Below, in pieces: positions 1 to 17,035 of a DNA stretch of 20,000 nucleotides. Each line of letters starts with the position of its first letter. Position 1 is the stretch's first letter. The stretch spans positions 303,106-323,105 of the forward strand of contig NZ_MWQY01000002.1 of NCBI RefSeq assembly GCF_002087085.1. Reading direction: 5' to 3'. The notes under the pieces are model-generated. The model worked only from the letters and a program-made list of their open reading frames with translations, searched no databases and was not told the DNA's origin. A program made the translations under genes and the position numbers.

Positions 1-19
1 AAAAAGAAAAGCCTTTCAC
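1..19 (-). CDS. Probable 5' end of a gene running off the left edge (GTG AAA GGC TTT TCT TTT = MKGFSF...), product unknown
   Basis: On the minus strand GAGGT (plus acctc 28-32) sits 8 nt before GTG (plus cac 17-19), downstream of a sigma-54 motif at 86-102. Only 6 codons are visible. Confidence 0.45.
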
Positions 20-85
20 GCTGCTTTACCTCACTCTTAGTTAAACTCTGCACTTTTCAGTCAAAGGGACTATATACACACATAG

Positions 86-102
86 TGCAGGTTTAGTGCC
101 AA
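86..102 (-). promoter_or_regulatory. Sigma-54 (-24/-12) promoter
   Basis: Minus strand reads TTGGCACTAAACCTGCA, with GG-N10-GC spacing matching TGGCAC-N5-TTGCW except C for the first T of the -12 box. It lies in intergenic DNA and points to the SD/GTG at 19. Confidence 0.7.
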
Positions 103-304
103 GTATCCATAATCCCTGAACCCGGATTACCCGATTGATCATATATTTTACATGATGTGCAATGGAGATATATAAAATCTTTCAAGAAAATAAGTTACGT
201 AGACATACATTCAGCAATGAGGATTGTTGCAGGGGAGGAATTGTAAAGCCGGAAAACGATCTTCAGTGATGAAACATGTAATTGGTGAGGATTTATCTAT
301 TAGC

Positions 305-319
305 GGTGATATTCTCTAC
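305..319. promoter_or_regulatory. Degenerate copy of the GGTGA-N5-TCACC element (candidate upstream activator site)
   Basis: ggtgatattctctac matches ggtgaaattatcacc (10260-10274) at 11/15 positions. Its centre is 225 bp upstream of the -12 C at 87. Confidence 0.35.
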
Positions 320-339
320 AGCTTTTACAGCATCATTCT

Positions 340-377
340 AAAAAACCCCTTGAATGAACTGGTATACATTCAAGGGG
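340..377 (-). terminator. Rho-independent terminator of the kinase...tctA operon
   Basis: Perfect 11-bp stem ccccttgaatg (346-356) / cattcaagggg (367-377), followed on the minus strand by TTTTTT (plus 340-345). It starts 27 nt after the tctA stop. Confidence 0.85.
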
Positions 378-404
378 CGGCTGTATGCTGATCAGGTTTG
401 CAGC

Positions 405-1910
405 CTACTCGGGCAAAACGGCAATCTCGCGCTTCAGGGTTGCCCGGATGTTAAGGGTAACGGTAACCGCTGTAATGGCAAGAAAAACAAGTGCTATTGG
501 CCGTGAGAAGAGAGAAAAAGCATCCATGGCAAACAGCTGAGACGATTTTCTAAGATTCATCTCGAACATGGGCCCGAGTATGAAACCGAGGATCATTGGC
601 GTCAACGGAACCCCGGCCTTGATAAGACCGTACCCGACAAGCCCGAACAGGAGGACACCCCAGACGTCGAAAATACTGTTACTGTCGCCGATGGCACCGA
701 CACAACAAAGAATCACTATCAGAGGAAACAGGTACTGCTTGGGAATTTTCAGGATCCGTATAAATACCCTCATTCCCCCGAACTCGAGAATAAGCATGGC
801 TACGGCAGCTATGACCATCGCGACAAAAATGCCATATACCACCGGTCCGTTCCTGTCGAAAATGAGCGGTCCCGGTGCGATATCATGAACCATGAGACCG
901 CCGAGCAGCATGGCAGTAACTGCATCACCGGGAATTCCCAGGGACAACAGTGGAATCATGGCACCCCCAATACTCGCATTATTCGCCGATTCCGATGCCA
1001 CAACACCATCCATTATACCAGTACCGAACTTGTCCGAATGTTTGGAGCTGTTTTTCGCGACCGTGTACGAAATCATACAGGCCGGACCACCGCCGATCCC
1101 GGGCAGAATCCCGATACCAACGCCGATCAGGGCTGAACGTATCGTGTTGAACCACTGGGAGAAGAATTCCTTCAAGGAAAAACCGAATCCTCTGATTTTG
1201 AAATCCTCATTTACTTCCGCTTCGTTATTGTTACGTACCTGTTCTGCATATTTTACCACTTCGGTTATTGCAAAGAGACCGATCAGAAAAACCAGCAGCT
1301 TGAATCCCGCAGTCAGGTTAACAGATCCGAAGGTAAAACGGGCTCTGGAGTCTATCGGCGATAGCCCTATAGTGGCGAACATGCAGCCGAGAATGGCGCT
1401 GATAAGACCTTTTACAATATCATCACCCGTTAATGCTATTACAAGGGAAAGGGAGAAGATTGCCAGCGCACAATATTCATATGCTCCGAATTTCAGTGCA
1501 AAACTCGCAACCTTCGGGGCCATAAACACCAGAATCCCGATTCCGATCAGGGTGCCGAAGAAGGAAAAAACAATTCCTGTACCAAGGGCTTTGCCGGCCA
1601 TACCATTCTTCGCCATGGGTGCCCCGTCAAAGCAGGTCGCAACAGACGAAGGTGTACCCGGAATATTGAGCAGAATAGCCGAGATAAGGCCTCCCGAAAT
1701 ACCGCCTATATACAGGGCCACAAGGGTTGAAATTCCCTGTATGGGGGTCATCGTATAGGTCATGGGAAGAAACATCACTATCGACATCGTGGCAGTAAGT
1801 CCCGGAACAGATCCGAAAACAATACCCACCCCGACTCCGGAAAAAATCAATAACAGGATAAACGGATTGAAGGCGACGTTCGTCAATCCTTCTATAAACG
1901 CAGAATACAT
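405..1910 (-). CDS. tctA: Tripartite tricarboxylate transporter (TTT) large permease TctA
   Basis: 501-aa polytopic membrane protein with the TctA signatures ILLNIPGTPSSVATCFDG and ASESANNASIGGAMIPLLSLGIPGD. AGGAGGAG SD upstream. Confidence 0.95.
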   Translation of the reverse strand: MYSAFIEGLTNVAFNPFILLLIFSGVGVGIVFGSVPGLTATMSIVMFLPMTYTMTPIQGISTLVALYIGGISGGLISAILLNIPGTPSSVATCFDGAPMAKNGMAGKALGTGIVFSFFGTLIGIGILVFMAPKVASFALKFGAYEYCALAIFSLSLVIALTGDDIVKGLISAILGCMFATIGLSPIDSRARFTFGSVNLTAGFKLLVFLIGLFAITEVVKYAEQVRNNNEAEVNEDFKIRGFGFSLKEFFSQWFNTIRSALIGVGIGILPGIGGGPACMISYTVAKNSSKHSDKFGTGIMDGVVASESANNASIGGAMIPLLSLGIPGDAVTAMLLGGLMVHDIAPGPLIFDRNGPVVYGIFVAMVIAAVAMLILEFGGMRVFIRILKIPKQYLFPLIVILCCVGAIGDSNSIFDVWGVLLFGLVGYGLIKAGVPLTPMILGFILGPMFEMNLRKSSQLFAMDAFSLFSRPIALVFLAITAVTVTLNIRATLKREIAVLPE

Positions 1911-1925
1911 TTGACGTCTCCTCCT

Positions 1926-2432
1926 TTAGAATCCGAGAATGCCCCTGGGCAGAAGAACAGATAACAATCTTACAAAGAGAAAATCGATCACCACAGAAGA
2001 AACGATCGCAATAATCGCTGCGGTCCTGTAATTCCTCTTACCTGGAGGTGTAAGTAATACTGATAAAAAGAAGATAAAAAGAATCGACATTATCGTGAAA
2101 CCGACATATCCCAATAAAGCGGTATATACCCCTAGACCGACAAAGGTCAGAATCACTTCGTAATTTCGGTTATAGAAATCTCTTAAGGTCAGTTTTTCTG
2201 TTGAAATATCCATGCCCTCTTTTATAGCAATCCTCCTGCCCCTGAACCCTCGCAATAAGAGACTGAGGCTCAACGCCAGAAGACAGATACCCCAAAATCT
2301 CGGAATGAATGTGGCATCCAGAGGAGTGGCCCCCAATCCAAGAAAAGGCACGATATCAAAAGAAAAATACAGATAGAGTACAGAAAAAATGGACAAGGAA
2401 CTGCCTGCCACAATGTTGGTTCGATAGGTCAA
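1926..2432 (-). CDS. tctB: TTT small membrane subunit TctB
   Basis: Several hydrophobic helices and C-terminal F..LLSVLLPRGILGF, directly upstream of tctA. Start moved from 2549 to the TTG at 2432, which follows AAGGAGGAAGG (168 aa). Confidence 0.88.
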   Translation of the reverse strand: MTYRTNIVAGSSLSIFSVLYLYFSFDIVPFLGLGATPLDATFIPRFWGICLLALSLSLLLRGFRGRRIAIKEGMDISTEKLTLRDFYNRNYEVILTFVGLGVYTALLGYVGFTIMSILFIFFLSVLLTPPGKRNYRTAAIIAIVSSVVIDFLFVRLLSVLLPRGILGF

Positions 2433-2638
2433 AACCTTCCTCCTTATGGATTTGAACTCACATAAAACCCGTACCGGTTCTCCAGGGCATCTCCAAAAAC
2501 TACTCTTTTTCCCATTTTCAGGGTCGTCAAGATTTCCCGCGGTCCTCAACTCATGTTATCACAAGAATTTGCGGTCCTTACAAAATCTTTCTTTCCTGAC
2601 TATGAAAAAACTACCACGTTCTTAGAGCTTCCCTCTAT

Positions 2639-3931
2639 TTAAACGAACTCCAGGAGATTCCCTTCGTTATCGAATTTCATTTTCCTGGCATTTTCCACTA
2701 TTTCTACCCCTTCAGTCTCCATAGCTTCCTGCTGCATCGCTTCAGATATATAGAGTTCGTCAAGACTCAGGGTATTTTTAATAAGGACGATTCTTACCGT
2801 CTTCTTTTCAATATTTGTACATGTTTTTATTGCCGCTTTAATAGCCAGTTCATCATCTTCCATTACCATCGCTATTTTTCCCGGCGTAATAACGGTGGAT
2901 GTAAGCATATTCGGATAAAGGGCAGTAAAATCGATCTTGTTAAACAGTCGCAGGGTAGTTACATCGGCCATCCCCACTCCCATTGCATTTCCATGGGATT
3001 TATCGGAGACATCGAGAACAACGGTCTTCTGCTTATAAATACCACCCGACCCATAGGGGGTTGCCCAGGTCCCGGTAACATTCGGATCCATACCACTCCC
3101 GGAAAAATTCTTCCCGATCTGGGTTACAACAAGTACATCCGTTTCGGGAAAAAGGATTCTTGGCATCCGCTTTTTGGCATACTCCAAAAGAGGAGGTTCC
3201 TTTTCCGCGATCTCCTCCCCTTTGATAACTTCAATACGGCAGGTCTGATCATAAGCGTTCTCAATGACACCGACACCGAAAACTACATTATTATTATTCA
3301 TTATGACGCGGGCAAACTCCGGGATTCTTTCCTTGAAGGCGCCGAATCCCGCGGCATGAAGGGAATCCGCTCCCTTCTGTTTGCCAAGTCCGATGCCGAG
3401 CATCTTAAATAGTCCGGACTCATAGGGACCGCGAAATGCCGTGTGGGCTTTTATGCGTCCCACCACAACGATTGAATCAGACTCAGCTGTAAATTTATCG
3501 AAATATACAGGCAAACCATCCGGGGTGTAACCGGTAACGACGGTATCCATTGAGGAGTGAATCGGACAGGCGCAGAATTCTTCTGTAATACCGTAGTCTT
3601 CCAGGATCTCTTTCTGTCCCTCTGCCGAAGAACCTCCATGACTGCCCATGGCAGGAACAATGTACGGATGGGCCCCACAGCTTGTAATAAATGCAGCCAG
3701 CTCCCGGAGAATCACGTTCATGTTCGCAATTTCACGACTGCTCCCGGTCAGGACCACCCTGTCACCCTGTCGTATCCTTGCACTCAGGGACTGTTCTTTG
3801 AGTTGAGTTCTGATTGTTCCAGGAATATCCTCAACTCTGCTTCCGTCGAAGTGCTGCCGAACCTTTATCACTCCCGGTATTGGTACATCTTTGAGAAGAT
3901 GTCGTATATTTGTCTGTTTCTTTATCTCCAT
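2639..3931 (-). CDS. LarA-superfamily (DUF2088 / lactate racemase domain) protein, putative nickel-pincer hydroxyacid racemase/epimerase
   Basis: 430 aa. Motifs IVPAMGSHGG, RIKAHTAF..YESGLFKM.GIGLGK and GADSLH resemble the LarA ATG.H, H...SGG.K and Ni-ligand His segments. AGGA SD present. Confidence 0.75.
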   Translation of the reverse strand: MEIKKQTNIRHLLKDVPIPGVIKVRQHFDGSRVEDIPGTIRTQLKEQSLSARIRQGDRVVLTGSSREIANMNVILRELAAFITSCGAHPYIVPAMGSHGGSSAEGQKEILEDYGITEEFCACPIHSSMDTVVTGYTPDGLPVYFDKFTAESDSIVVVGRIKAHTAFRGPYESGLFKMLGIGLGKQKGADSLHAAGFGAFKERIPEFARVIMNNNNVVFGVGVIENAYDQTCRIEVIKGEEIAEKEPPLLEYAKKRMPRILFPETDVLVVTQIGKNFSGSGMDPNVTGTWATPYGSGGIYKQKTVVLDVSDKSHGNAMGVGMADVTTLRLFNKIDFTALYPNMLTSTVITPGKIAMVMEDDELAIKAAIKTCTNIEKKTVRIVLIKNTLSLDELYISEAMQQEAMETEGVEIVENARKMKFDNEGNLLEFV

Positions 3932-3960
3932 AATTCCTGCTCAGCTCCGTGCATATAATT

Positions 3961-3990
3961 AACCCGAAAAGCCTTAAGGCTTTTCGGGTT
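3961..3990. repeat. Perfect 30-bp palindrome between tctC and the LarA-like gene (terminator/mRNA-stability hairpin)
   Basis: aacccgaaaagccttaaggcttttcgggtt is its own reverse complement and lies 17 nt after the tctC stop. Confidence 0.85.
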
Positions 3991-4007
3991 TTAACCTGTA
4001 TTTTCAG

Positions 4008-4985
4008 TTATCGCAGGTATTTGGAGAATTTCATGAAATGTTCACGCTGCTTCATCAGCTCCGCAATGGTGTCATCTACACTCAGAGCCCAGGGATCCTG
4101 CAGGTTGAATTTTCGACACTCTGCAGCGTATTCAGGGTCATTGTTGACAACATCCAGAATCGCTGCGTTCATCTGTTCAACGATCTCCCTGGGAGTTCCT
4201 TTAGGAGCAAGACACACATACATGGTGTCCATAACAAGATCAGGAACACCGGTCTTGCTGGCCGAAGGAACATTCTTGAGCAGTGAGGGAGAATCGCTCA
4301 GCAATGTAGCAAGGGTTCTGATCTGCCCTGATTCTATATACTGTTTCGCCGTCGCATAGGGAACGATAGTCGCATCAACATGTTTTCCCAGAAGAGCAGT
4401 CATCCGGGATGCACCGTCACCCTGATCCATGACCGCAAACTCCGCACCTGACTGAGCCAGTATGACCGAAGCGATATAAACACCACCGCCGGTGGATATT
4501 CCAAAGCGGATAGTATTCGGATTGGCTTTTGAAGCTTTTACCAGATCGTCAATGGACTGGTAGGGAGAATCGGCGGGAACGATAATGTTTTCGCCGGACT
4601 GCTTGCCGTAAATAGCGACCGGTTCAAAGGCATCCCATCCGAAAGAAGAAAGCCCGGTAGCCTCATTACCCATCACAGCCGTCGTATTGGTCATGATAAA
4701 GGTATATCCATCGGGTTTGGCATTCCGGTACTGTTCCATGGCGATATTACCGTTGCTTCCGGTAACGTTGGTGGGAACAAGGGAAACCCCAAGTTTCTTT
4801 TCCACAAACCGGCTGATCAGACGACCGTTATAATCCGTATCTCCACCGGCACCATGGGTACCGATAATGGTGATATTCTGCTTTGGCCATTCAGCGGCCC
4901 CACTGCCTGCACTTTCCGATTTCCCTTCGGAAAAAACTGAAACTGTAAACAATAATACAAGCGCAGCTACAAGAAATTTTTTCAT
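4008..4985 (-). CDS. tctC: TTT substrate-binding protein TctC (Bug family)
   Basis: Motifs WPKQNITII..HGAGGDTD, NVTG.NG.IA, KPDGYT and APKGTPREIV. Signal peptide MKKFLVAALVLLFTVSVFS starts at ATG 4985 after AAGGAGGGG, so the track's 5144 start is over-extended. Confidence 0.92.
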   Translation of the reverse strand: MKKFLVAALVLLFTVSVFSEGKSESAGSGAAEWPKQNITIIGTHGAGGDTDYNGRLISRFVEKKLGVSLVPTNVTGSNGNIAMEQYRNAKPDGYTFIMTNTTAVMGNEATGLSSFGWDAFEPVAIYGKQSGENIIVPADSPYQSIDDLVKASKANPNTIRFGISTGGGVYIASVILAQSGAEFAVMDQGDGASRMTALLGKHVDATIVPYATAKQYIESGQIRTLATLLSDSPSLLKNVPSASKTGVPDLVMDTMYVCLAPKGTPREIVEQMNAAILDVVNNDPEYAAECRKFNLQDPWALSVDDTIAELMKQREHFMKFSKYLR

Positions 4986-5037
4986 GTAACCCCTCCTTAA
5001 TAAATTATCCGATCCAGGACCGGATTGCGTAACATTG

Positions 5038-6015
5038 TCAAACACCCTTCCATTTCGGGTGCTCATAGACCTCCGGGTTGCATACATGAGGCCATTTTTC
5101 TCCCTCAATAACCGCGAGGGTTCCCTGTACAGCCATGGTGACAACGGCGCTTGTCGTCTCCCTGGTCTGAGCCGCCATATGCGGACTGACGATGAGGTTG
5201 CTCAGCTTCATTAAGGGGTGCTCAGCTTTCATGGGTTCATCGGCCAGCACGTCCACCGCCGCTCCGGCTATACTTTCGTTCTTCAGGGCTTCAAAGAGTG
5301 CCGTTTCATCGACTATATCGCCCCGTGCACAGTTTATGAGAAATGCACTCTTCTTCATTGCAGCGAGGATTTGACTATTGATCATGTTACGGGTTTCCGG
5401 CATGGACGGCATATGGAGGCTCACGTAATCCCCAGCCTCAACAGCCTGTTGCAGGTCCCCTGCATAGGTGTATCCCAGAGCTTCCACGTCTTTTCGGTCG
5501 AGGAAGGGATCGTAGGCGCATACTTTCATGCCCACACCGGCGCAGAGCTGCGCGACGGTCCTGCCGATATTTCCCAGGCCTATTACACTGACTGTTTTTC
5601 CCAGCAGTTCGACGGCGGCATACTTGTTGCGAATGCCGAAATTCCCTTTTCTCGTCTCGACATCGCTTTCCACAATATTTTTTGATATGCCGAAGATCAG
5701 GGCCAGAGTATGCTCGGCAACTGCCCGGGCATTGGCGGCGGGACAGATCACAACCGGAATACCCCGCTCCGTGGCGGCCTGAACATCAACATTATCAACA
5801 CCCACACCCGGACGGGTTATTACCTTGAGCTTTTCACAGGCATCAATAGCCTTACGATCGATCTTCCCAATTCGCAGAATGAAACCGTCGGCTTTTTTTA
5901 AATCCTCGATAATGATGTCACTGTCTCCATTATTCGGAATTATAAGATCTGCCTTACCGTTGATGGCATCCATCCCCGGTTTGTACAAGGGATGCGAGAT
6001 CAGGACAGTAATCAT
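5038..6015 (-). CDS. D-isomer-specific 2-hydroxyacid dehydrogenase (SerA-like catalytic core, no ACT domain)
   Basis: 325 aa with GVGVDNVD, GLGNIG (Rossmann), INCARG, DVLADEP and SPHMAA (Arg/Glu/His catalytic set). Confidence 0.92.
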   Translation of the reverse strand: MITVLISHPLYKPGMDAINGKADLIIPNNGDSDIIIEDLKKADGFILRIGKIDRKAIDACEKLKVITRPGVGVDNVDVQAATERGIPVVICPAANARAVAEHTLALIFGISKNIVESDVETRKGNFGIRNKYAAVELLGKTVSVIGLGNIGRTVAQLCAGVGMKVCAYDPFLDRKDVEALGYTYAGDLQQAVEAGDYVSLHMPSMPETRNMINSQILAAMKKSAFLINCARGDIVDETALFEALKNESIAGAAVDVLADEPMKAEHPLMKLSNLIVSPHMAAQTRETTSAVVTMAVQGTLAVIEGEKWPHVCNPEVYEHPKWKGV

Positions 6016-6019
6016 ATCT

Positions 6020-7045
6020 TTACACCATCCTCACGCCCATCTCGATGGCCTGCAGCATGCTCTCAGGATTTGCCCGGCCTTCGCCGGCCTTTCCGAAGGC
6101 GGTACCGTGGTCCACGGAGGAGCGGATAATCGGCAGCCCCAGGGTAATGTTGACCCCGGACATGGAGAGCCAGGTATTGGTGTTACGGTCGTAGTTGAAT
6201 CCCGCCAGCTTGGTGGGGATATGCCCCTGGTCGTGATACTGAACAACCACTATGTCGTACTGCCCGCCCTTCATTTTGGAAAAGACCGTATCCGGAGGGA
6301 TCGGTCCTTCCACCGTCATGCCTTCGGCAACAGCCTGCTCGATGGCGGGAATAATCTCATCGATCTCTTCCCGGCCGAACATGCCGTTTTCACCGGCGTG
6401 GGGATTCAGACCTGCCACGGCAATTCTGGGCTGTTCGATGCCCAGCCGCTTCAGGGCCTCGTCCGCCAGCTTGATAACCCGGTAAACCCGTTCCTTTTTG
6501 CAGCGGTTTATTGCCTCCTGCAGGGATACGTGGGTGGAGACATGGACAACCCGGAAGTCCCCTTCGGCGAGCATCATGGCGTAATCCCTGGTCCCGGTAA
6601 GACGGGCGTAGATCTCAGTGTGTCCGGCTTCCTTGATACCGGCGGAGTTAATGGCCTCCTTGTTTATGGGGCCGGTGATAGTCGCATCAACTTCTTTTGC
6701 AAGGGCGAGCTGGATAACCTTCTCGATATATTCATAGCTGGCCTTTCCGGTCATGGCGGAAACGGTTTTATATTTCAGCCTGCTCATGTCTATATTCTGC
6801 ATATCGAGCACGTCTATGGTTCCGAATTCGTACCTGCCCTCCGCCGGAGACGAAACGGCCCTGGTTTTCAGGGAAAGCCCGGAAAACTCAATGGCCGCTT
6901 CCATGACTTTCAGATCACAGACTGCCAGGGGCCTGCAGATATCGTATACGTGCTTTTCATTCAAGGCCTTGGCGGTAATCTCCGGTCCGATACCCGCCGG
7001 ATCGCCAACGCTGATTCCTAAAATTGGTCTCTTCTCAGTTTTCAT
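6020..7045 (-). CDS. pdxA: PdxA-family dehydrogenase, likely PdxA2 (4-phospho-threonate/erythronate dehydrogenase)
   Basis: Motifs GDPAGIGPEI, GHTE, THVSL, GLNPHAGE, YHDQGHIP and GLPIIRSSVDHGTAF. Adjacency to a DUF1537 kinase is the known PdxA2 context. Confidence 0.92.
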   Translation of the reverse strand: MKTEKRPILGISVGDPAGIGPEITAKALNEKHVYDICRPLAVCDLKVMEAAIEFSGLSLKTRAVSSPAEGRYEFGTIDVLDMQNIDMSRLKYKTVSAMTGKASYEYIEKVIQLALAKEVDATITGPINKEAINSAGIKEAGHTEIYARLTGTRDYAMMLAEGDFRVVHVSTHVSLQEAINRCKKERVYRVIKLADEALKRLGIEQPRIAVAGLNPHAGENGMFGREEIDEIIPAIEQAVAEGMTVEGPIPPDTVFSKMKGGQYDIVVVQYHDQGHIPTKLAGFNYDRNTNTWLSMSGVNITLGLPIIRSSVDHGTAFGKAGEGRANPESMLQAIEMGVRMV

Positions 7046-7067
7046 GGTCTGTTCCTTCTAGAAATAT

Positions 7068-8372
7068 TCATTTACGTTCCGGCTGCTGTTCCTGTCTGCC
7101 GGTAACGATTTTACACACCTGTGTCATTGCATTTTTCCTGCCGAAACCGCCGGCCTTTGAAATAAGGTAGACCGGCTTATCGGCATAGGGGGTATCAAAC
7201 CTTCCAATGGGGATGCCGGGCAGGATTTCGTCGAGTAATTCCACACCCTTGACTTTCAGTGACTCACTGACTCCGGCGGCAGTATTGCCCCCGGTAATAA
7301 ATACTGCTTCAATCTGGCGCTGCATAAAGATACGGGCAACCAGCCTTCCCAGGAAACTGGAAACCCGCTCTCCCAGCTCCTTCTCATTTATACCCAGTTC
7401 CGCTGCATATGCGATGTCGTTCTTGTATTCACAGTCACCATCGAAGGTTTTGATCAGCACCGGAACATCCTTCCTCGACTGAGAATCCTCATGCAGAAGA
7501 CGGGACAGTTCCTTTTCTTCGTCGTTAAGCAGGTTCTGCATGGCGACACAAAGGGATACAGGATCGATACTTTTTTCAAGTTCCGCCACCTGGGTTCTGG
7601 TAGTTTCCGTTACACTCCCTGCAACAAACAGCAGCTTCCCCTCATCGATAACGGGGAACTCCGGAGAGGACCCTTCCCCTGCGTCGGTGAGGGCTTCTGC
7701 AAGACCGGAGGCACCGGCAAACAGAACCGACTCATCTTCCCGGGCTGAAGCAAGGATCCGGAGGTCCTCCAGTGTTTCTGCATCGGCGACGATGGCCCGT
7801 GCGCCCTCCTGTCTCAGCTCTTTGAATCGTGTTAGAAAGGCATCCGAACCTTTGCGTATCGTTTCAAGATCGATATGCCCAACGCTGTTGCGAAACCACC
7901 GTTCAAGAAGTCCCGGGACAAATGCAGACGCAACAGGAGTGAAAGGATCGATCTGGTGTCCGTTCTCACCGATGGGCACCCCGTTTACCAGACAGTTGCC
8001 TGCCACAACAGTACGCCCGTTCTTGGGAGCCGAAGGGGCCACAAGGGCGCAATCAAAATCTCCGGCATCCATGACGGCGGCAATCTCTTCGGGAACATTT
8101 CCGCGAATGGTTGAATCGATTTTTTTGAAAAACTGCCGTACACCAAGTCTTCTGCAGGTTTCGACTACACTCCGCACCTTGTCATAGGAATCACTGGGAA
8201 GCATGAACCTGGATTCGGTACTGACGACAAGTACGTTATATAATTCAAGATCAACACCGGAATCCCAGTTCTGGAGGGCGAGAAACGGCGTATATCCGTT
8301 CTTTCTGAACTGTACGGCAGAATCGCCGGCTCCGGTAAAATCATCAGCTATTATGCAAAGTTTTAAACCCAT
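7068..8372 (-). CDS. Four-carbon acid sugar kinase family (DUF1537; DtnK/DenK-like)
   Basis: Motifs IIADDFTGAGD, STESR, KKIDSTIRGN, DAET.EDL, AGASGLA, TGGNTA and SKAGGFG. Confidence 0.92.
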   Translation of the reverse strand: MGLKLCIIADDFTGAGDSAVQFRKNGYTPFLALQNWDSGVDLELYNVLVVSTESRFMLPSDSYDKVRSVVETCRRLGVRQFFKKIDSTIRGNVPEEIAAVMDAGDFDCALVAPSAPKNGRTVVAGNCLVNGVPIGENGHQIDPFTPVASAFVPGLLERWFRNSVGHIDLETIRKGSDAFLTRFKELRQEGARAIVADAETLEDLRILASAREDESVLFAGASGLAEALTDAGEGSSPEFPVIDEGKLLFVAGSVTETTRTQVAELEKSIDPVSLCVAMQNLLNDEEKELSRLLHEDSQSRKDVPVLIKTFDGDCEYKNDIAYAAELGINEKELGERVSSFLGRLVARIFMQRQIEAVFITGGNTAAGVSESLKVKGVELLDEILPGIPIGRFDTPYADKPVYLISKAGGFGRKNAMTQVCKIVTGRQEQQPERK

Positions 8373-8386
8373 ACTTGGAAGTATTA

Positions 8387-8403
8387 AGCAATGAACGTGC
8401 CAA
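8387..8403 (-). promoter_or_regulatory. Sigma-54 (-24/-12) promoter of the kinase-pdxA-...-tctA operon
   Basis: Minus strand TTGGCACGTTCATTGCT is an exact match to TGGCACG-N4-TTGCW, immediately upstream of the first operon gene. Confidence 0.85.
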
Positions 8404-8587
8404 GGTCACAGGTTTTTCATTTTCATTTTTCCATTTTCTCCCCGTTATCCGTAACGGAGACAAAGCATCGTCCATACTCGTATCTAAGTCTTTACACTGA
8501 TGTACTTTAAGAAATTCCCCGAAACTGAAGGGCCGCACACCCGACGAAAAGTGTCTGAACCGGGATTATAGACTTTTGCGGAAAACA

Positions 8588-8620
8588 TCCGCTGGTGATG
8601 ATTATATCACCACCAGCGGA
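8588..8620. repeat. Inverted repeat (15-bp arms, 1 mismatch): terminator for the glpM-like gene and/or activator site
   Basis: tccgctggtgatgat-tat-atcaccaccagcgga, followed on the minus strand by TGTTTT. The core gatgattatatcacc resembles 10260-10274. Confidence 0.75.
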
Positions 8621-8640
8621 GTAAAATATCCACATTGGGA

Positions 8641-8991
8641 CTATCTAATATGGAGCAGATATTTATTTACGATAATTACCAGCAGTGCAATAATGAGCCA
8701 CACAAGAACAGATAACAGTATTGATGAACGATAGCTGTACCGGTTAAGAAAACAGTAAAAGGATATGAGAAAACCAAGGGTTGTCGGAAAGGATACGATA
8801 CTGAACAGGGCAATATTCTGCAGCTGCCGGGGAGAAGCACTTCTGCCTATGAAGAAAAATCCTATAACCGTCACTATTGGAAACAGGACCAGCAGGCCGG
8901 AGAGGTGGGGAAGCTTCGACTTTGAAACAAGGGAAACAAGAACGATGAGGCTTCCTCCCACAGTAAACCTGATCAGCATCTCCATCCACAT
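8641..8991 (-). CDS. GlpM/YdgC-like small membrane protein
   Basis: 116 aa, about 4 TM segments. RF..GG.LIVLVSLVSK...HLSGLLVLFP resembles the YdgC/GlpM N-terminus. Confidence 0.7.
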   Translation of the reverse strand: MWMEMLIRFTVGGSLIVLVSLVSKSKLPHLSGLLVLFPIVTVIGFFFIGRSASPRQLQNIALFSIVSFPTTLGFLISFYCFLNRYSYRSSILLSVLVWLIIALLVIIVNKYLLHIR

Positions 8992-9005
8992 ACCATACCC
9001 CGGAT

Positions 9006-10079
9006 TTACAGACTGAGAATACGGTGCTGTATATAGTCCCGCAGATATGAGTAGCTGATATGTATTCGACCGTCCCGCCCCTGAATGACGGAGGGATAGG
9101 AGTAATCACCGATAAAGGAACCTTTATGATCGTGCTCCGAACGCAGATTCGGATCCGATTCGACGACCAGCTCCTTTTTCCAGTTGAGTCCCAGATCATC
9201 GGAACTCGATATTACCAGCGGATTCCGCGGGACTCCCCATACGGCGCTCTTTTCAGTAATCCGGCACTGCCTGAGAAAATCCTCCTTATCCTGTATCCAG
9301 GGAGGAATTGAGCTTTCGCTTTTTCGTCCCCGGGCGGAATTCTCGTTATAGATAATCAGGATTCGATCATCCGACAGCAACCGTGCCTGAATTGAGGCAT
9401 TGTTGTTGGGAAGTTCGGTAGCTTCAGGTTTGGACCAGCTCAATCCATCGTCATCGGAAACACTGCGGTAGATTCTGTCCGATCTTCTGCTTCTGTAGAA
9501 AGCCGCCCTGCAATTTGACAGAATATTCATGTGAACACAGCCGTTGCTTTCAGGAACTTCGATGGTTTCCCAGCTTGAACCGCCGTCCCGGGAGACCATG
9601 ACCAGACTAGTATCATCCCCGAAGGCGTTTTTTATATTGCTGTGCCAGATTGGTACAAGAATATATCCCCTGGAGTTGACAACAGGAGTCTGCCTGATGA
9701 AGGTACCTTCCCCTGTAAAGAGGTCTTCGATTCCTTCCCAGGTTTTTCCACCGTCCCTGGAGCGACGACGCCGGACAATGGCCGTTCCCTGGTCCGTTTT
9801 CAATTGGGCGGTATAGAGAAGCCACAGCTCTTTCCCTGGGCTTGTAAAAATAACCGGATTCTGTTCCGACCGTGTGGGATCATCAGACATCTTCTCCGCC
9901 GGACTCCAGGTTTCACTGGAAGAATCGAAACGGGAAAGATAGATGCTTACGTCGGAGGATCCTTCCATACTGCCGCCGAACCAGGTGCACAGCAGATTTC
10001 CGTCCTCAAGCTCCAGCAGATTGGAGGCATGATTGCTTGTACAGGGTGTGGGTATTTTATGTGAACTGATAATCTTCAT
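9006..10079 (-). CDS. Sialidase-fold (BNR/Asp-box) beta-propeller protein, no signal peptide
   Basis: Asp-boxes SRDGGKTW, SRDGGSSW, SDDDGLSW and SDDLGLNW, plus C-terminal DYSYPS. Preferred start is ATG 10079 after AGGA; an alternative in-frame ATG is at 10124. Confidence 0.85.
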   Translation of the reverse strand: MKIISSHKIPTPCTSNHASNLLELEDGNLLCTWFGGSMEGSSDVSIYLSRFDSSSETWSPAEKMSDDPTRSEQNPVIFTSPGKELWLLYTAQLKTDQGTAIVRRRRSRDGGKTWEGIEDLFTGEGTFIRQTPVVNSRGYILVPIWHSNIKNAFGDDTSLVMVSRDGGSSWETIEVPESNGCVHMNILSNCRAAFYRSRRSDRIYRSVSDDDGLSWSKPEATELPNNNASIQARLLSDDRILIIYNENSARGRKSESSIPPWIQDKEDFLRQCRITEKSAVWGVPRNPLVISSSDDLGLNWKKELVVESDPNLRSEHDHKGSFIGDYSYPSVIQGRDGRIHISYSYLRDYIQHRILSL

Positions 10080-10138
10080 CTTTCTATCCTGTTTAATCTC
10101 AAGAATATAAAATATGCTGAGCATATTTCTGTTTTTCC

Positions 10139-12842: not shown

Positions 12843-13739
12843 TCAGGACTGTTTTCCGGCTCGGACCTTAACGCCCGCCAGCTTTTCATAGTACTGAATA
12901 ATTCCGCCGTGATCGTCCTTCTGCTTGCCGTCAACCTTGAGGGCCTGCATGATCTCCATGGACTGAGCAGTGAGGGGTACGGGTACTGAAAGCTCGTGAG
13001 CGGTATCCAGGGCATTCTGAATGTCCTTGATATGCAGCTCAATCCGGAAACCGGGCTTGTAGTTGCCTTCCAGGACCATGGGAGACTTGGCATTCAGAAC
13101 AGTGCTGCCGGCCAGTCCGCCCTTGATGGCGTTAAAGACCTTTTCCGGATCAACGCCGGCTTTGGTCGCGAGAACATAGGCCTCCGACATTGCCGAGATG
13201 TTCAGGGCGACAATAATCTGGTTGGCAAGCTTGGTGACGTTACCGGCGCCGATATCTCCGCAGAGAACAGCGGACGCACCCATTACAAGGAGTATGTCCT
13301 TAACTTTGTTGAATACCTCTTCCTTTCCACCGACCATGATTGCAAGACTTCCGTCAATCGCCTTGGGCTCTCCGCCGGAAACCGGAGCGTCAATCATTTC
13401 TATGCCTTTCTTGGCAAGCTCGGCAGCCACTTCCTGGGAAGCGAGGGGAGCAATGGAGCTCATATCCACTACAATGCTGCCGGACTTCGCACCCTCGATA
13501 ATGCCGCCTTCTCCAAGACATACAGCCTTGACGTGAGGAGAGTTGGGCAGCATGGTGATGATAATATCGGTCTTGCCGGCGACGTCCGCTGCGGAGGTTC
13601 CCGCTTCGGCTCCAGCCGCTACAACCTCATCCAGATTAGGCTTAACTACATCAAATGCAACAATCTCGTAACCTGCTTTAAGCAGATTCTTTGCCATGGG
13701 CTTACCCATGATTCCAAGACCAACAAATCCAAGTTTCAT
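12843..13739 (-). CDS. garR: 2-hydroxy-3-oxopropionate (tartronate semialdehyde) reductase
   Basis: GLGIMGKPM.KNLLKAGY, ITMLPNSPHVK, DMSSIAPLAS, DAPVSGGEPKAIDG, GAGNVTKLANQ and PGFRI.LHIKD closely follow E. coli GarR. Start is ATG 13739 after AAGGAG. Confidence 0.88.
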   Translation of the reverse strand: MKLGFVGLGIMGKPMAKNLLKAGYEIVAFDVVKPNLDEVVAAGAEAGTSAADVAGKTDIIITMLPNSPHVKAVCLGEGGIIEGAKSGSIVVDMSSIAPLASQEVAAELAKKGIEMIDAPVSGGEPKAIDGSLAIMVGGKEEVFNKVKDILLVMGASAVLCGDIGAGNVTKLANQIIVALNISAMSEAYVLATKAGVDPEKVFNAIKGGLAGSTVLNAKSPMVLEGNYKPGFRIELHIKDIQNALDTAHELSVPVPLTAQSMEIMQALKVDGKQKDDHGGIIQYYEKLAGVKVRAGKQS

Positions 13740-13833
13740 CTCAATACTCCTTAATAGATAAAATTTCCATAAAAAAATATGAATCTCCGGGCCGCAGATA
13801 CGGCCGGCGACTTCCATAACTCACACGCACTGA

Positions 13834-14547
13834 TCAGTCCCCGGTAAATCGCTTCTCTTCCCTGAGGCGGACAATAGTCCGGGTAACATGTTCCTCCATA
13901 AGCGCCTGTGCTGTCTGACTGTCCCTCTTCTTTATTGCATCAAGGATGCGCTTGTGAAAATCAAGTCCGTCCTGGGGGCCCAGCAGACTGACGATATTCT
14001 CCATGGAGGCACAGAGAATATCCTTTATGATGCTGTTCACCTTGAAAAAAACCTGGTTTTTGGTCGCCCCGGCCAAAGCAAGGTGAAAATCCAGGTCCGC
14101 ATGGGCAAACTCGGTGCTGTTCTCTTTACATTCCACCATCTTCTGATAGTAACTATCGAGGATTGCGATATCCGCTTTGGTGGCTTTTTCCACAACCAGG
14201 GCGACTATGCCCTTTTCCATGGTCTGCCGGTATTCAAGAACATCATAGATGCTGGTCCGGTCGAGGACCAACGCGGGAAGAAGATTGTTAATGTAACAGT
14301 CCGAGGAGGCGGAACAGACAAAACTCCCCTCGCCGTGTCGGGTTTCAAGCAGCCCCAGAGTAGCCAGTCTATGCAGGGCTTCACGTACAGAGACCCGGCT
14401 TACACCGAAGAGTTCGGATAATTCTCCCTCCGATGGGAGCTTCTCTCCGGCCTGCCAGACACCTTCTATGAGACGGGCTTTAAGCTGTTGAAAGACCTGG
14501 GCACTGACACGTTCGCGCCGTACCCGTTGTACCGTTACCTTGTTCAT
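13834..14547 (-). CDS. GntR family, FadR-subfamily transcriptional regulator
   Basis: wHTH KLPSEGELSELFGVSRVSVREAL..L...GLLETRHGEGSFV, with an FCD domain containing DLDFH..LA.AT.N and H.RILDAI. Confidence 0.93.
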   Translation of the reverse strand: MNKVTVQRVRRERVSAQVFQQLKARLIEGVWQAGEKLPSEGELSELFGVSRVSVREALHRLATLGLLETRHGEGSFVCSASSDCYINNLLPALVLDRTSIYDVLEYRQTMEKGIVALVVEKATKADIAILDSYYQKMVECKENSTEFAHADLDFHLALAGATKNQVFFKVNSIIKDILCASMENIVSLLGPQDGLDFHKRILDAIKKRDSQTAQALMEEHVTRTIVRLREEKRFTGD

Positions 14548-14560
14548 CCTCTCTGACCAC

Positions 14561-14594
14561 TTGTATGATAACTTACAATGTCGCCAGCTGTCAA
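14561..14594 (-). promoter_or_regulatory. Sigma-70-type promoter of the regulator overlapped by an operator-like palindrome
   Basis: Minus strand TTGACA-N18-TATCAT. The palindrome TTGTA-tgataact-TACAA at 14561-14578 covers the -10. Confidence 0.6.
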
Positions 14595-14598
14595 CGCA

Positions 14599-15435
14599 TC
14601 ACGATGGCCAGACCTGGCTGCCTCCGTCGACCCGAATGACCTCTCCGGTAATAAAACGGGAGGCATCGGTTGCCAGGAATTCCACCGCCGTAGCTACCTC
14701 CTCGGGCCAGCCGTACCGGTCCAGGGTCCCCTCATGGACCTTCCGGGAATCATCCGTCGGCCTTGAGGCAATATAACGCTCGGTGAGGGTATCCCCGGGG
14801 GCAATAACGTTGACATTGATGTCCCAGGGCCTCAGCTGAACTGCCAGACAGCGGGAGTACTCATGCACTGCGGCTTTTGAAGATGCGTAGATAGCCGCAC
14901 CGGGAAGACCTTTAAGCCCGGCGATGCTTCCGATATTGATTATCTTCCCGCTTTTCCTCTCCATCATCTCCGGGGCTACCGCCTTGCAGCTGTATACACA
15001 GGTCAGGAAGTTCCGATCCATAACGGTTTTTATGTCTTCCACGGATATGTTTGTCGCATCGTTGCCATCGGGTTTTCCCGCCATATCCGCCGCCACACCC
15101 TTCGTGCCGATATCACCCCCGGCATTGTTGACCAGAACATCGATGGCCCCGAGTTTCTGGTGGATCTCATCAACAATCCTCTGTACTGCCTTCCAGTCGG
15201 TAAGGTCTCCCGTTACCGCCAGACAGGTAACTCCGTATTTTTCGGCCACAGCCTTTGCGTTGCTTTCCAGGCTCTCCCCTTCGTTGAAGACTCTGGTGGA
15301 GTCCGGACGGCTGCCGTGTATAACCACGTTGGCCCCACAGGAAGCGAAGTGTTCAGCAATGGCTTTTCCAATACCCCGGGAAGAACCTGTTACCCAGACA
15401 TTCTTTCCGGAGAGGGAAAGATTTCTATTTTGCAT
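14599..15435 (-). CDS. Short-chain dehydrogenase/reductase (SDR)
   Basis: Motifs TGSSRGIG, NNAG, GSIAG, YASSK and RVDGG. AGGAG SD present. Confidence 0.93.
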   Translation of the reverse strand: MQNRNLSLSGKNVWVTGSSRGIGKAIAEHFASCGANVVIHGSRPDSTRVFNEGESLESNAKAVAEKYGVTCLAVTGDLTDWKAVQRIVDEIHQKLGAIDVLVNNAGGDIGTKGVAADMAGKPDGNDATNISVEDIKTVMDRNFLTCVYSCKAVAPEMMERKSGKIINIGSIAGLKGLPGAAIYASSKAAVHEYSRCLAVQLRPWDINVNVIAPGDTLTERYIASRPTDDSRKVHEGTLDRYGWPEEVATAVEFLATDASRFITGEVIRVDGGSQVWPS

Positions 15436-15450
15436 AGCTAACTCCTAGAT

Positions 15451-15498
15451 TAGTATGATATAATACAACATTATGTGGGGAAATGGACACAATCTCAA
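15451..15498 (-). promoter_or_regulatory. Sigma-70-type promoter of the SDR plus a second operator-like palindrome
   Basis: Minus strand TTGAGA-N17-CATAAT (15498-15470). TAGTA-tgatataa-TACAA at 15451-15468 covers the predicted +1. Confidence 0.55.
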
Positions 15499-15589
15499 GG
15501 GTAAATGCGGAAATTGCATTTTAATTTGATACCGCACCCCATACCCGCCGTATTCTGTACGGATAAATCTGCACCTTACGGAGAGAAGG

Positions 15590-16117
15590 ATGGAAAAGAA
15601 AACTGTCGAAAAGATAGCGAAGAAAGCCTACGATCTTGGTTTTAGCTTTGAAAAAGAGTATCGGGGCTGCGCCCAGTGCGCCATCGCGGCCCTGCAGGAT
15701 GCGCTGGAGGTACGGAACCCCGAGACCGACGCTATTTTTAAGGCGGCCACAGGAATGGCCGGGGGCGGAGCCAGGCAGATCGATGGAAACTGCGGCGCCT
15801 ATGCCGGAGGAACCATGATGATCGGCTACCATGTCGGCCGGGAGCGGGACAACTTCGCCGATCCTGAACAGATCAGGATGGAGAACTTCAGACTGGTCAA
15901 GAAGCTGCATCAGCGCTTCATCGACGAGTTCGGTACTGTCACCTGCAGCGAGATCCACACCCGCACCATGGGCCGCCCATTCTATATTGAAGATCCCGAC
16001 GAGTTCCAGAAATTCGAGAATGCCGGGGCTCACACCGACAAGTGCACCCGGGTCGTCGCCCTGGCGGCCAAATGGAGCACCGAGATCCTGGCGGAAGAGG
16101 GATACCTGGATAAATAA
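15590..16117 (+). CDS. C_GCAxxG_C_C family putative redox-active protein
   Basis: Cys pattern GCAQC ... GNCGAYAGG ... TCSEI ... KCTRVV. GGAG SD present. Confidence 0.85.
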   Translation: MEKKTVEKIAKKAYDLGFSFEKEYRGCAQCAIAALQDALEVRNPETDAIFKAATGMAGGGARQIDGNCGAYAGGTMMIGYHVGRERDNFADPEQIRMENFRLVKKLHQRFIDEFGTVTCSEIHTRTMGRPFYIEDPDEFQKFENAGAHTDKCTRVVALAAKWSTEILAEEGYLDK

Positions 16118-16129
16118 AAGCTCCGGGTA

Positions 16130-17035
16130 TCAGATCAGCGAAGCCAGCACAAAACTCAAAGGGATGGTAATAATGCCCAGGGCCGTGGTCAGTACCACGA
16201 TGCTCTGGGCATCCGATGAATCGATGCCGTAGCGGGCGGGCAGAACATAGGAGAAAACCGCAGACGGAAGCGCCGCGGCAACAAGGACCACCGTCCTGGT
16301 CAGGCCTTCCAGCCGGAAGAGATAGACCGCAGCGATACCCAGCAGAAACCCGACACCTATCCGCAGCAGGATTCCCCAGAACACCGCGGCATCGATTTTC
16401 GGCCTGCGCATGCTTAAGGAACCCCCCACAATAAAGGCCGCCAGGGGAGCGGCTGCGGCACCGGCGAAACGGCAGGTTTCCAGAATTGTCCCGGGAACCG
16501 GTATCCTGAACAGATGAAAAAGAAAGCCCAGAACTGCGGCTATCAGGATCGGGGACTTCAGGGAAAGCATAAGACCCTTGAGATTGAAGCCGCCGCCGAT
16601 TATCAGAAAACCGAAACTGAAGAGAAAGAGTCCGTAAATCTGGTCGAAGACTATAATGATGTTCAGGGCTTCGCTTCCGCTCCAGAGCTGCATCAGGGGA
16701 AAGCCGAGGAAGCCTGAATTCATGAAGATAACCGGCAGGGCCAGTCCCCGGATATCCCTGCCGGCAATCCGGCCGTAGACCACGACAATCAGGTAGGTAC
16801 TCAGCATCAGAAAGAGCACTGTGGCCAGCAGATCCCCCATATCATCCTGACTGACCGTGGATTCATAGAGACTGACAAAGACCAGCAGGGGCATGAAAAA
16901 ATCTACCAGCACCCGGGAAAGGGTATCCTCGCTGATGGGAGCGGCCGCGGACATCATCCAGCCGCCGGCTATAACGGCAAAAAGAGGGAGCAGCACACTG
17001 AGGGTATCAAGAAAGTAGCTGAGCATGGTGTACAT
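16130..17035 (-). CDS. AEC (auxin efflux carrier) family transporter
   Basis: About 10 TM segments with FFMPLLVF.SL, FMNSGFLGFPL, SPILIA and ALPSAV...VL.ARY. Confidence 0.88.
   Translation of the reverse strand: MYTMLSYFLDTLSVLLPLFAVIAGGWMMSAAAPISEDTLSRVLVDFFMPLLVFVSLYESTVSQDDMGDLLATVLFLMLSTYLIVVVYGRIAGRDIRGLALPVIFMNSGFLGFPLMQLWSGSEALNIIIVFDQIYGLFLFSFGFLIIGGGFNLKGLMLSLKSPILIAAVLGFLFHLFRIPVPGTILETCRFAGAAAAPLAAFIVGGSLSMRRPKIDAAVFWGILLRIGVGFLLGIAAVYLFRLEGLTRTVVLVAAALPSAVFSYVLPARYGIDSSDAQSIVVLTTALGIITIPLSFVLASLI

Follow-up and report, generated by a model that had tools for sequence, protein, structure and literature searches.

D-threonate is reportedly broken down by a catabolic pair, said to have been described by Zhang et al. 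in PNAS in 2016, in which the DUF1537-family kinase DtnK acts together with PdxA2, a D-threonate 4-phosphate dehydrogenase; PDB entry 6E85 and two NCBIfam models, NF047819 and NF002891, bear these names out. Here we analyze a locus in which members of both families are encoded side by side, their order of action unchanged, together with a homolog of the nickel-pincer enzyme LarA (LarAH; designated P0001), a D-isomer-specific 2-hydroxyacid dehydrogenase (HADH) and a tripartite tricarboxylate transporter (TTT) behind a sigma-54-type promoter element, none of which forms part of the described pathway. The locus occupies positions 405-8372, on the minus strand, of a 20-kb window (the whole stretch of DNA analyzed), which constitutes the last 20 kb of the 323-kb contig C12 of genome G000 (4.2 Mb in 79 contigs, 97.2% complete, GC content 0.53 and free of Ns).

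Group 22 of the LarA superfamily, to which P0001 belongs, was defined by Desguin et al. in 2020 (PMC7583248) from 20 sequences and is listed as being of "unknown function" in the parts of that study on which we draw, with arginine, lysine and histidine cofactor-binding residues given for it in the supplement. The gene neighbors listed there comprise short-chain dehydrogenases/reductases (SDRs; 45%), IlvD/EDD dehydratases (30%), LarE (30%), TRAP transporters (30%) and FGGY kinases (25%), along with IclR, glucuronate isomerase and ROK-type sugar kinases; unlike in the window, PdxA, DUF1537, D-2-hydroxyacid dehydrogenases and TTT systems are not found among these published contexts. In the sections covered of a 2024 follow-up study (PMC11770544), 4-deoxy-threonate/erythronate are epimerized by other LarA homologs, and group 22, PdxA and tetronates go unmentioned. 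The group itself is large: clustering at 90% leaves more than 7,900 proteins, and at 50% there are 1,084 clusters (E<=1e-30).

Two further described systems are comparable to the locus. GntE (LarAH19/20), a nickel-pincer nucleotide (NPN)-dependent D-gluconate/D-mannonate 2-epimerase, resembles our working model in being a LarA homolog of an acid-sugar cluster that inverts C2 for a downstream enzyme, but it belongs to a different LarA group from P0001, has other partners and probably acts on a longer substrate than would be the case here. The L-threonate and D-erythronate routes (LtnD/DenD, OtnI, OtnK and OtnC, with a "3-step" variant using 2OtnK/2OtnC; PMC12994016, in the parts consulted) likewise take C4 acid sugars to dihydroxyacetone phosphate (DHAP) by means of a DUF1537 kinase and a C2 dehydrogenase; however, they proceed via 2-oxo-tetronate, use the decarboxylase/aldolase-type OtnC and an isomerase instead of PdxA2, draw their C2 dehydrogenase from another family and lack an epimerase. 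Our literature searches recovered no published account of a LarA homolog combined with DUF1537 and PdxA, in keeping with the first-pass annotation of this DNA, which knew of no characterized pathway with this combination. We report that the association of LarAH with the DUF1537/PdxA2 pair is recurrent and undescribed in the literature searched, and that its assignment to tetronates is plausible but incomplete.

Operon structure and component enzymes

Seven successive open reading frames (ORFs), assigned to families by Pfam and NCBIfam, span 405-8372 and code, in the order of transcription, for the DUF1537 kinase, the PdxA2-like enzyme, HADH, TctC, the LarA homolog P0001, TctB and TctA. The first-pass annotation had placed seven co-oriented genes between one sigma-54 promoter and one terminator, and this arrangement stands (site at 8387-8402, ORFs at 405-8372 and terminator at 339-378); its title leaves HADH unnamed. 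The sigma-54 -24/-12 element (8387-8402, minus strand; TGGCACGTTCATTGCT) matches the consensus TGGCAC-N5-TTGCT exactly and lies about 14 nt 5' of the kinase ATG. Thirteen matches with up to two mismatches occur in the 20-kb window against 7.7 +/- 2.8 expected, a set that is not enriched overall; among them this is the sole site with zero mismatches, for which our own arithmetic gives an expectation of about 0.02 per 20 kb. The element is retained at equal spacing from the ATG of the orthologous kinase in the congeners G002 and G004, where the surrounding upstream DNA has diverged, and rpoN is found in G000. The end of the -12 element and the ATG are separated by 14-16 nt in the window (8372-8402) and in the loci of these two congeners (L148, L149), with no Shine-Dalgarno sequence, and as the gap is this short the transcript would be nearly leaderless. 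At the other end, an intrinsic terminator (339-378, minus strand) with a 12-bp stem, a 10-nt loop and a U6 tract directly follows the stop codon of TctA, and its fold is stable (-27.6 kcal/mol, z = -3.24); a consensus terminator scan missed it because of the 10-nt loop, while locating the strong terminator of the preceding gene at 8588-8620. No Rfam family matched window positions 1-9300 at E<=0.1. G000 encodes six PrpR-type sigma-54 activators, all distant from the operon; in the related loci L023, L035 and L039 a sigma-54 activator adjoins the cluster. Separately, two group 22 paralogs of G000 (C1:281611-282870 and C79:137137-138402) lie 6-8 kb from PrpR-type activators (C1:290695-291180 and C79:130615-131079).

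The identification of P0001 (2639-3931, minus strand, 430 aa) is based on several lines of evidence. It scores 518.7 bits against the NCBIfam model NF052515, "nickel pincer cofactor-dependent isomerase, group 22" (cut-off 400), and 34.9 bits against PF09861 (Lar_N; cut-off 23.3). A single-sequence search of the PDB did not retrieve LarA; a profile of 20 homologs recovered LarA-family entries only, at weak significance (E 0.1-1.5), and the correspondingly weak alignment to LarA (2YJG) and Mar2 (6D6Z) equates H98, H163, K176 and H192 with His108, His174, Lys184 and His200, with the equivalence of R66 to Arg75 of LarA coming from a by-eye comparison of motifs. These five candidate residues are invariant in all 103 aligned rows of the family. 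An AlphaFold2 model (predicted local distance difference test score 79.8, low in residues 275-353) was compared with the PDB by Foldseek, and the top 17 among the matches listed all belong to the LarA family (E 1e-11 to 1e-7, template-modeling scores 0.38-0.49). From this fold and these residues P0001 is a two-histidine, NPN-type member of the LarA superfamily with predicted catalytic activity, in agreement with the LarA-like identity given to it earlier, and it would work by the classical mechanism, a proton-coupled transfer of hydride. It shares with the group as published (PMC7583248, in the parts used) the catalytic histidine pair, the NPN-binding arginine, lysine and histidine, and a sugar-acid neighborhood, and in keeping both catalytic histidines it differs from the single-histidine LarA homologs reported in PMC12611868. 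The loop HTAFRGPYE was considered as a clade-specific feature and rejected, as the alignment shows it to be family-wide.

The DUF1537 acid-sugar kinase (7068-8372, minus strand, 434 aa) contains both the sugar-binding N-terminal domain (PF07005, 194.5 bits) and the nucleotide-binding C-terminal domain (PF17042, 102.4 bits) at full length; its closest PDB entries are DUF1537 structures (97-132 bits), and its orthologs in G002 and G004 are 74-75% identical in amino acid sequence. The PdxA homolog (6020-7045, minus strand, 341 aa; PF04166, 347 bits) carries an 11-residue insertion compared with PdxA2 and scores 265-290 bits against PdxA2-type structures (4JQP, 290; 2HI1, "PdxA 2", 279; 6E85, "D-threonate 4-phosphate dehydrogenase", 265), versus 180 for Escherichia coli PdxA and 144 for TphB. 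Since PdxJ is absent from G000 and PdxS is present (359 bits), indicating that pyridoxal 5'-phosphate (PLP) is made by the route independent of 1-deoxy-D-xylulose 5-phosphate, the PdxA homolog cannot serve PLP synthesis, and these comparisons together show it to be of the predicted catabolic PdxA2 kind. The same facts bear on the idea of a salvage pathway to PLP in which the kinase and PdxA would recover 4-hydroxy-L-threonine or 4-phosphoerythronate, with HADH in a PdxB-like role. HADH does weakly match PdxB models, the PdxA homolog scores above the cut-off of TIGR00557 "pdxA" (340 versus 290), and DUF1537/PdxA2 can reportedly recycle 4-hydroxythreonine (Thiaville 2016, as cited in PMC9997740); however, with PdxS in place of PdxJ, and with a transporter, sigma-54 control and catabolic neighbors that speak for carbon catabolism, we rejected such a role as very improbable.

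The third enzyme of the operon, HADH (5038-6015, minus strand, 325 aa; PF02826 and PF00389, 192 and 97 bits), has as its closest solved relatives McyI (220 bits) and the 3-phosphoglycerate dehydrogenases (PGDH), enzymes which act on D-2-hydroxy acids bearing a distal anionic group, with McyI acting on a malate-type diacid. This likeness fits a phosphorylated acid or a diacid as its substrate.

Recurrence of the association among LarA lineages

We then examined gene neighborhoods in a survey of 104 loci, comprising the best 80 of more than 570 species-level genome loci and 24 metagenome loci, in which all ORFs were searched iteratively with the window proteins. A tree of 104 rows, from which four loci with a LarA ORF shorter than 380 aa had been dropped, was computed by a quick IQ-TREE search with SH-aLRT (approximate likelihood-ratio) support only. 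P0001 falls in a clade of seven with an SH-aLRT value of 100 (the window, L017, L018, L019, L023, L035 and L021), of which five are linked to PdxA (the window, L017, L018, L019 and L023). In L019 and L023 we observed a contiguous set of six genes coding for the kinase, an iron-type alcohol dehydrogenase (Fe-ADH), an aldolase of the dihydrodipicolinate synthase (DHDPS) type, PdxA, HADH and LarAH; in L017 and L018 the contig end falls just upstream of Fe-ADH. The most constant neighbor is HADH, which adjoins or lies near the LarA homolog in all seven. An ORF of about 250 aa matching no Pfam family is located between HADH and LarAH in L018 (4445-5188) and in the gap at 9223-10001 of L023, and is absent from the window.

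Outside this clade, the locus L086 from a member of the Spirochaetia, placed in a separate starred clade, holds the trio of kinase, LarAH and PdxA amid unrelated genes, and the congener G002 carries yet another linked version. Thus, the linkage of LarAH to the kinase and PdxA is found in at least three separate LarA lineages, and in two of the three the same six enzymes occur together. As these lineages are non-orthologous and nevertheless share the same partners, we propose that the association is functional, and we regard this as the strongest evidence in its favor. The 24 metagenome loci are all distant from P0001 (41-54% identity), with none in the close clade, and are uninformative on linkage.

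In G000 itself the six-enzyme set is present across two transcription units. A second sigma-54-like site with one mismatch (86-101, minus strand; TGGCACTAAACCTGCA) precedes an Fe-ADH/DHDPS-type aldolase unit that begins near window position 19 and continues beyond the window (L107, C12:285106-303105), where the Fe-ADH and aldolase genes are succeeded by those for an Opp-like ABC system, a canonical LarA resembling malate racemases, a TRAP transporter and a dehydrogenase of the Ldh_2 family. Each of the two sigma-54-like sites has a near-identical 13-nt motif upstream of it, AATCC[C/G]GGTTCAG, at 119-132 and at about 8554-8567, in the latter case within a TAATCC-N8-GGATTA palindrome; we considered a shared upstream activator site for the two regions and set it aside, a single 13-nt near-match being too thin to claim one.

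Most of the group 22 members surveyed are located in pentonate, hexonate or aldarate clusters (L029, L020, L039 and L050, for instance, lie in pentonate, hexuronate and aldarate clusters). In L057, from Neobacillus, a single gene run comprises LarAH, an SDR, a LarE-like protein, an FGGY kinase, LarB and LarC, and this presence of larE, larB and larC in one run with LarAH directly supports cofactor dependence. At position 342 of P0001, equivalent to Trp358 of LarA, methionine or leucine is found in all seven rows of its clade, and glycine, alanine or serine in at least 82 of the 96 remaining rows; together with G63, M342 forms a pocket signature by which the clade deviates from the rest of group 22, and the residue at 342 hints at a smaller substrate or pocket.

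These contexts suggest two alternative readings of the operon. In one, the kinase would form an omega-phospho-pentonate or -hexonate, which the PdxA-like enzyme would decarboxylate to a tetrulose or pentulose phosphate, with LarAH serving as a GntE-like aldonate 2-epimerase. The prevalence among group 22 contexts of pentonate/hexonate clusters that contain UxuA/UxuB as well as FGGY kinases and IlvD/EDD dehydratases favors such a C5/C6 route, as do the insertions of the PdxA homolog, the position of both kinase and PdxA below the D-threonate equivalog cut-offs (see below) and the reported ability of tetronate-pathway enzymes to process C5/C6 acids (PMC12994016, in the parts consulted); however, the clade's methionine or leucine in place of the glycine, alanine or serine of pentonate/hexonate-context relatives suggests a smaller pocket, and the PdxA homolog is much closer to D-threonate 4-phosphate dehydrogenase structures than to other solved ones. 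We consider this route unlikely.

In the other, an aldarate or dicarboxylic route, LarAH would epimerize a TTT-imported tartrate, pentarate or hexarate, and HADH and the DHDPS-type enzyme would act on the resulting diacid in its 2-hydroxy or 2-oxo form, with the kinase and PdxA either handling a downstream fragment only or belonging to a separate pathway that shares the locus. Di- and tricarboxylates are the usual cargo of TTT and TRAP transporters, and the nearest solved relative of HADH is a malate-type diacid enzyme. Moreover, L039 and L050 combine a CdaR-type regulator, an enolase-superfamily dehydratase, a GD_AH dehydratase, DHDPS and tartronate-semialdehyde reductase; a GD_AH dehydratase adjoins the clade members L035 and L023; the window itself codes for a tartronate-semialdehyde reductase above its cut-off (12843-13817; 492.8 bits versus 397); and other LarA homologs epimerize tartrates and pentarates (PMC11770544, in the sections covered). 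Against this, a diacid offers no terminal CH2OH to a DUF1537 kinase, yet the kinase and PdxA accompany LarAH in three lineages; L086 has nothing else relevant nearby; and a dehydratase is absent from the operon and from the next unit. An aldarate route for the window thus appears improbable to us.

The proposed route and its substrate

Based on these observations we tentatively propose, with a confidence a little short of even that extends jointly to the mechanism set out here, that 405-8372 is a sigma-54-dependent operon for the uptake and catabolism of a small hydroxy-carboxylate of the acid-sugar kind. The acid would be imported by TctCBA and phosphorylated at its terminal CH2OH by the DUF1537 kinase, whereupon the PdxA2-type enzyme would oxidize the 3-hydroxyl and decarboxylate the product, so that a C4 acid would yield DHAP and CO2 as in the D-threonate route. 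The group 22 LarAH would invert C2 by nickel-pincer hydride shuttling and thereby funnel in the epimer that the kinase and PdxA2 refuse, the interconversion of D-erythronate and D-threonate being the leading candidate, and the PGDH/McyI-like HADH would interconvert the 2-hydroxy and 2-oxo forms of the same or a neighboring intermediate. Our best single guess is accordingly a C4 acid sugar degraded by a D-threonate-type route, with LarAH equilibrating its C2 epimers.

Several observations weigh against this proposal. The recurrent linkage of LarA to DUF1537 and pdxA2 that the first-pass annotation looked for is borne out by the three or more lineages, and in L086 in just the bare form predicted, yet only 5 of the 104 loci surveyed have PdxA, and 3 of 104 the DUF1537 kinase, at a distance of up to 10 kb from the LarA homolog; kinase/PdxA linkage is not a trait of the whole group 22 family. 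Even within the clade of P0001, L035 and L021 have HADH, the DHDPS-type aldolase and a TTT or TRAP system without kinase or PdxA, and conversely the kinase-PdxA pair of G004 occurs without any group 22 LarAH. Between the kinase and its counterparts in L019, L023 and L086, identity is only 26-30%. The annotation's pairing of the kinase with PdxA2 holds at the level of families, in that D-threonate kinase is the best named model for the kinase and PdxA2-type structures are nearest to the PdxA homolog, and not at that of specificity: the kinase scores 259 against a cut-off of 450 for D-threonate kinase (with 179 against 350 for 3-oxo-tetronate kinase and 51 against 700 for OiaK, none at equivalog level), and the PdxA homolog reaches 319 of the 583 set for the D-threonate enzyme model NF002891. 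Nor does the window, or the stretch of 18 kb downstream of it, contain a sigma-54 activator gene. The tetronate 2-epimerase funnel of the first-pass annotation is plausible but incomplete, in that HADH, Fe-ADH and the aldolase, which the tetronate model does not need and leaves unexplained, are the most constant partners. A dicarboxylate would be just as compatible with TTT or TRAP import and a dehydrogenase like McyI. Finally, this strain lacks the cofactor genes, as detailed in the next section.

A reading that would give each of the six enzymes a role is that they constitute a catabolic route for Dha (3-deoxy-D-lyxo-heptulosarate) passing through D-threonate. Dha is a rare diacid of the pectin rhamnogalacturonan II and of prasinophyte scales and thecae (PMC13501991 and PMC10762512, in the parts used). 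A TTT or TRAP system would import the diacid, a DapA/NanA-like aldolase of the DHDPS family would give pyruvate and a C4 aldehydo-acid, and Fe-ADH would reduce the C4 aldehyde, a step whose product comes out as exactly D-threonate in a Fischer projection worked by hand for the D-lyxo configuration. D-threonate would be turned into DHAP and CO2 by the DtnK-like kinase and the PdxA2-like enzyme, and LarAH and HADH would adapt C2-epimeric or 2-hydroxy/2-oxo variants. The diacid-type transporters would be in line with such a route, as would the provenance of the relatives (rumen and gut) and of the sequencing runs with G000 DNA (marine and sediment); our literature search found no paper joining "heptulosaric" with DUF1537 or threonate, and we offer the route as a doubtful possibility. 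A sialidase-like BNR_2 protein encoded nearby (see below) was considered as a Dha or Kdo (3-deoxy-D-manno-octulosonate) hydrolase and rejected, its likeness to sialidases reaching only E ~1e-3.

Cofactor genes, congeneric loci and implications

Returning to the C4 acid-sugar proposal, the first-pass annotation had looked to larB, larC and larE elsewhere in the genome, and profile models, tblastn and the syntenic site yielded none, which for this strain counts against its epimerase. G000 has nine Lar_N-family reading frames, all open and four of them of group 22. LarC is matched by neither of two models (TIGR00299 and PF01969); for LarB and LarE there are only sub-cut-off matches (40.9 versus 175 and 29.5 versus 150) to PurE-like and PP-loop proteins; and tblastn of G000 with one congener's LarB, LarC and LarE gave nothing beyond a PurE-like match of 38 bits. 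LarC is found in all five congeners, and in four of them (G001, G002, G004 and G005) a single chromosomal site carries larC-larE-larB, in an island of about 9-13 kb which also holds Fe/B12-type ABC transporter genes. The flanks of this island are directly adjacent in contig C56 of G000, at about 138,850-138,960 (positions 2454-2561 of L143), a clean absence. The island-less junction recurs in Logan contigs of other public runs: one contig of X1, a run that is perhaps, but not certainly, related to the sample of origin, spans the whole 5-kb stretch with 82 differences, and one of X7 bridges it with 22. The contigs of X16 break at both edges of the junction with loose ends, as expected of an island-bearing relative. 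As far as the assembly can show, the absence of larCEB is real for this lineage.

LarA produced without LarE and LarC in E. coli stays unloaded with cofactor (PMC11796402, in the part seen). Given this and the loss of larC-larE-larB, P0001 is in this strain probably an inactive apo-protein, and only the epimer directly accepted by the downstream enzymes would be used. A canonical LarA located 8 kb downstream has a branch omega of about 0.05, as in congeners that bear larBCE, although this estimate is rough and its synonymous divergence (dS 0.4-1.9) partly saturated; decay of this gene was sought by dN/dS and no relaxation was seen within that limit. The unrelaxed constraint suggests that the loss of larCEB is recent. 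Among the seven other genomes that hold clade members or L086, all metagenome-assembled genomes (MAGs), LarC is present in five.

It is accordingly conceivable that the LarAH gene is a decayed or decoupled passenger in this strain, non-functional and carried in a cassette acquired or retained for its transporter and dehydrogenase, a view that is compatible with any of the substrate models and for which we hold the chances to be evenly balanced. The missing larBCE genes, the unloaded state of LarA made without LarE and LarC, and the fact that the exact HADH-TctC-LarAH-TctB-TctA cassette was not found in the five congeners all argue for it. Conversely, all nine LarA-family frames are open, P0001 retains every invariant residue, the neighboring canonical LarA is as constrained (within the limits of that rough estimate) as its counterparts in larBCE-bearing congeners, and a decayed gene would account for this strain and not for the conserved module in other genomes.

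Comparison with the congeners indicates how the operon was put together. DNA similarity is confined to the kinase and PdxA genes (77-80%). In G004 (L149) the canonical LarA, TRAP and Ldh_2 genes come straight after the kinase-PdxA pair, with the cassettes absent; in G002 (L148) the order is kinase, PdxA, Fe-ADH, a dehydrogenase (HADH'), an aldolase (DHDPS'), TctC'B'A' and LarAH', and amino acid identity to the G000 proteins is 74% for the kinase, 94% for PdxA, 87% for Fe-ADH, 47% for the dehydrogenase and 36% for the aldolase. LarAH' is 49% identical to P0001 and lacks the G63/M342 signature, and thus G000 and G002 hold non-orthologous versions of the dehydrogenase, aldolase, TTT and group 22 LarA. 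The HADH-TctC-LarAH-TctB-TctA block has a GC content of 0.42-0.52, versus 0.53 for the genome, and MAGs of Synergistaceae and Oscillospiraceae hold its nearest relatives (58-61% identity); relative to G002, the block lies inserted between PdxA and the Fe-ADH/DHDPS-type aldolase unit. The operon is a mosaic in which the kinase, PdxA and the promoter are native to the genus and this block is an inserted lower-GC cassette, and the locus is a hot spot for cassettes, bounded on one side by the conserved kinase-PdxA pair and on the other by a conserved end with the canonical LarA and Ldh_2.

The transporter encoded by the cassette is complete, with all three subunits present and with full-length domain matches as in other TctABC systems, but its gene order is split, LarAH and a repeat separating TctC from TctB-TctA. 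TctA, the large membrane subunit (405-1910, minus strand, 501 aa), matches PF01970 at full length (481.8 bits). The periplasmic solute-binding protein TctC (4008-4985, minus strand, 325 aa; PF03401, 106.3 bits) derives from a raw ORF of 4008-5144; the protein actually starts with the ATG at 4985, which is preceded by an AAGGAGG ribosome-binding site, and it has a signal peptide. In the small membrane subunit TctB (1926-2435, minus strand, start approximate; PF07331, 54.2 bits) the domain match begins at residue 55 of the 207-aa ORF of 1926-2549. The space between LarAH and TctB is occupied by a structured interspersed repeat of about 155 nt (2484-2640, minus strand), which gives the TctB ORF a spurious N-terminal extension, and the start of TctB is probably near 2435. 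The repeat has ends like terminal inverted repeats (GGGCACCTCTAAAAAC ... GTTTTTAGAGGTGCCC), folds into a long conserved hairpin (-54 kcal/mol) and matched no Rfam family; G000 contains 30 further copies at 72-86% identity, among them C1:87990-88146, C79:6163-6320 and C5:54093-54254, and the congeners contain dozens.

Beyond the cassette, G000 has as extras relative to G002 and G004 the Opp-like ABC system and, upstream of the operon, genes for a GlpM-like membrane protein (8641-8991, minus strand) and the sialidase-like BNR_2 protein (9006-10124, minus strand). Neither of the latter two is at this position in G002 or G004, where a GGDEF gene lies immediately 5' of the kinase. Farther upstream, the tartronate-semialdehyde reductase gene belongs to a conserved flank (12843-17035) shared with G002 and G004, which also codes for a GntR/FCD regulator, two SDRs and a permease of the AEC family and could form a unit of its own, related to glycerate or aldarates.

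The nine intact LarA-family genes left after a clean deletion of larC-larE-larB amount to a natural experiment on LarA function without endogenous cofactor synthesis. For group 22, which is large and has no assigned reaction, the locus provides a testable substrate shortlist for one clade, and, as far as our literature searches show, it links nickel-pincer chemistry to a DUF1537/PdxA2 acid-sugar pathway for the first time. It further indicates that the D-threonate module, usually one of two genes, often belongs to a larger set of six enzymes with an as yet undescribed logic. Should the Dha reading of that set be true, it would give D-threonate a natural source, group 22 of the LarA superfamily its first function and Dha its first catabolic route.

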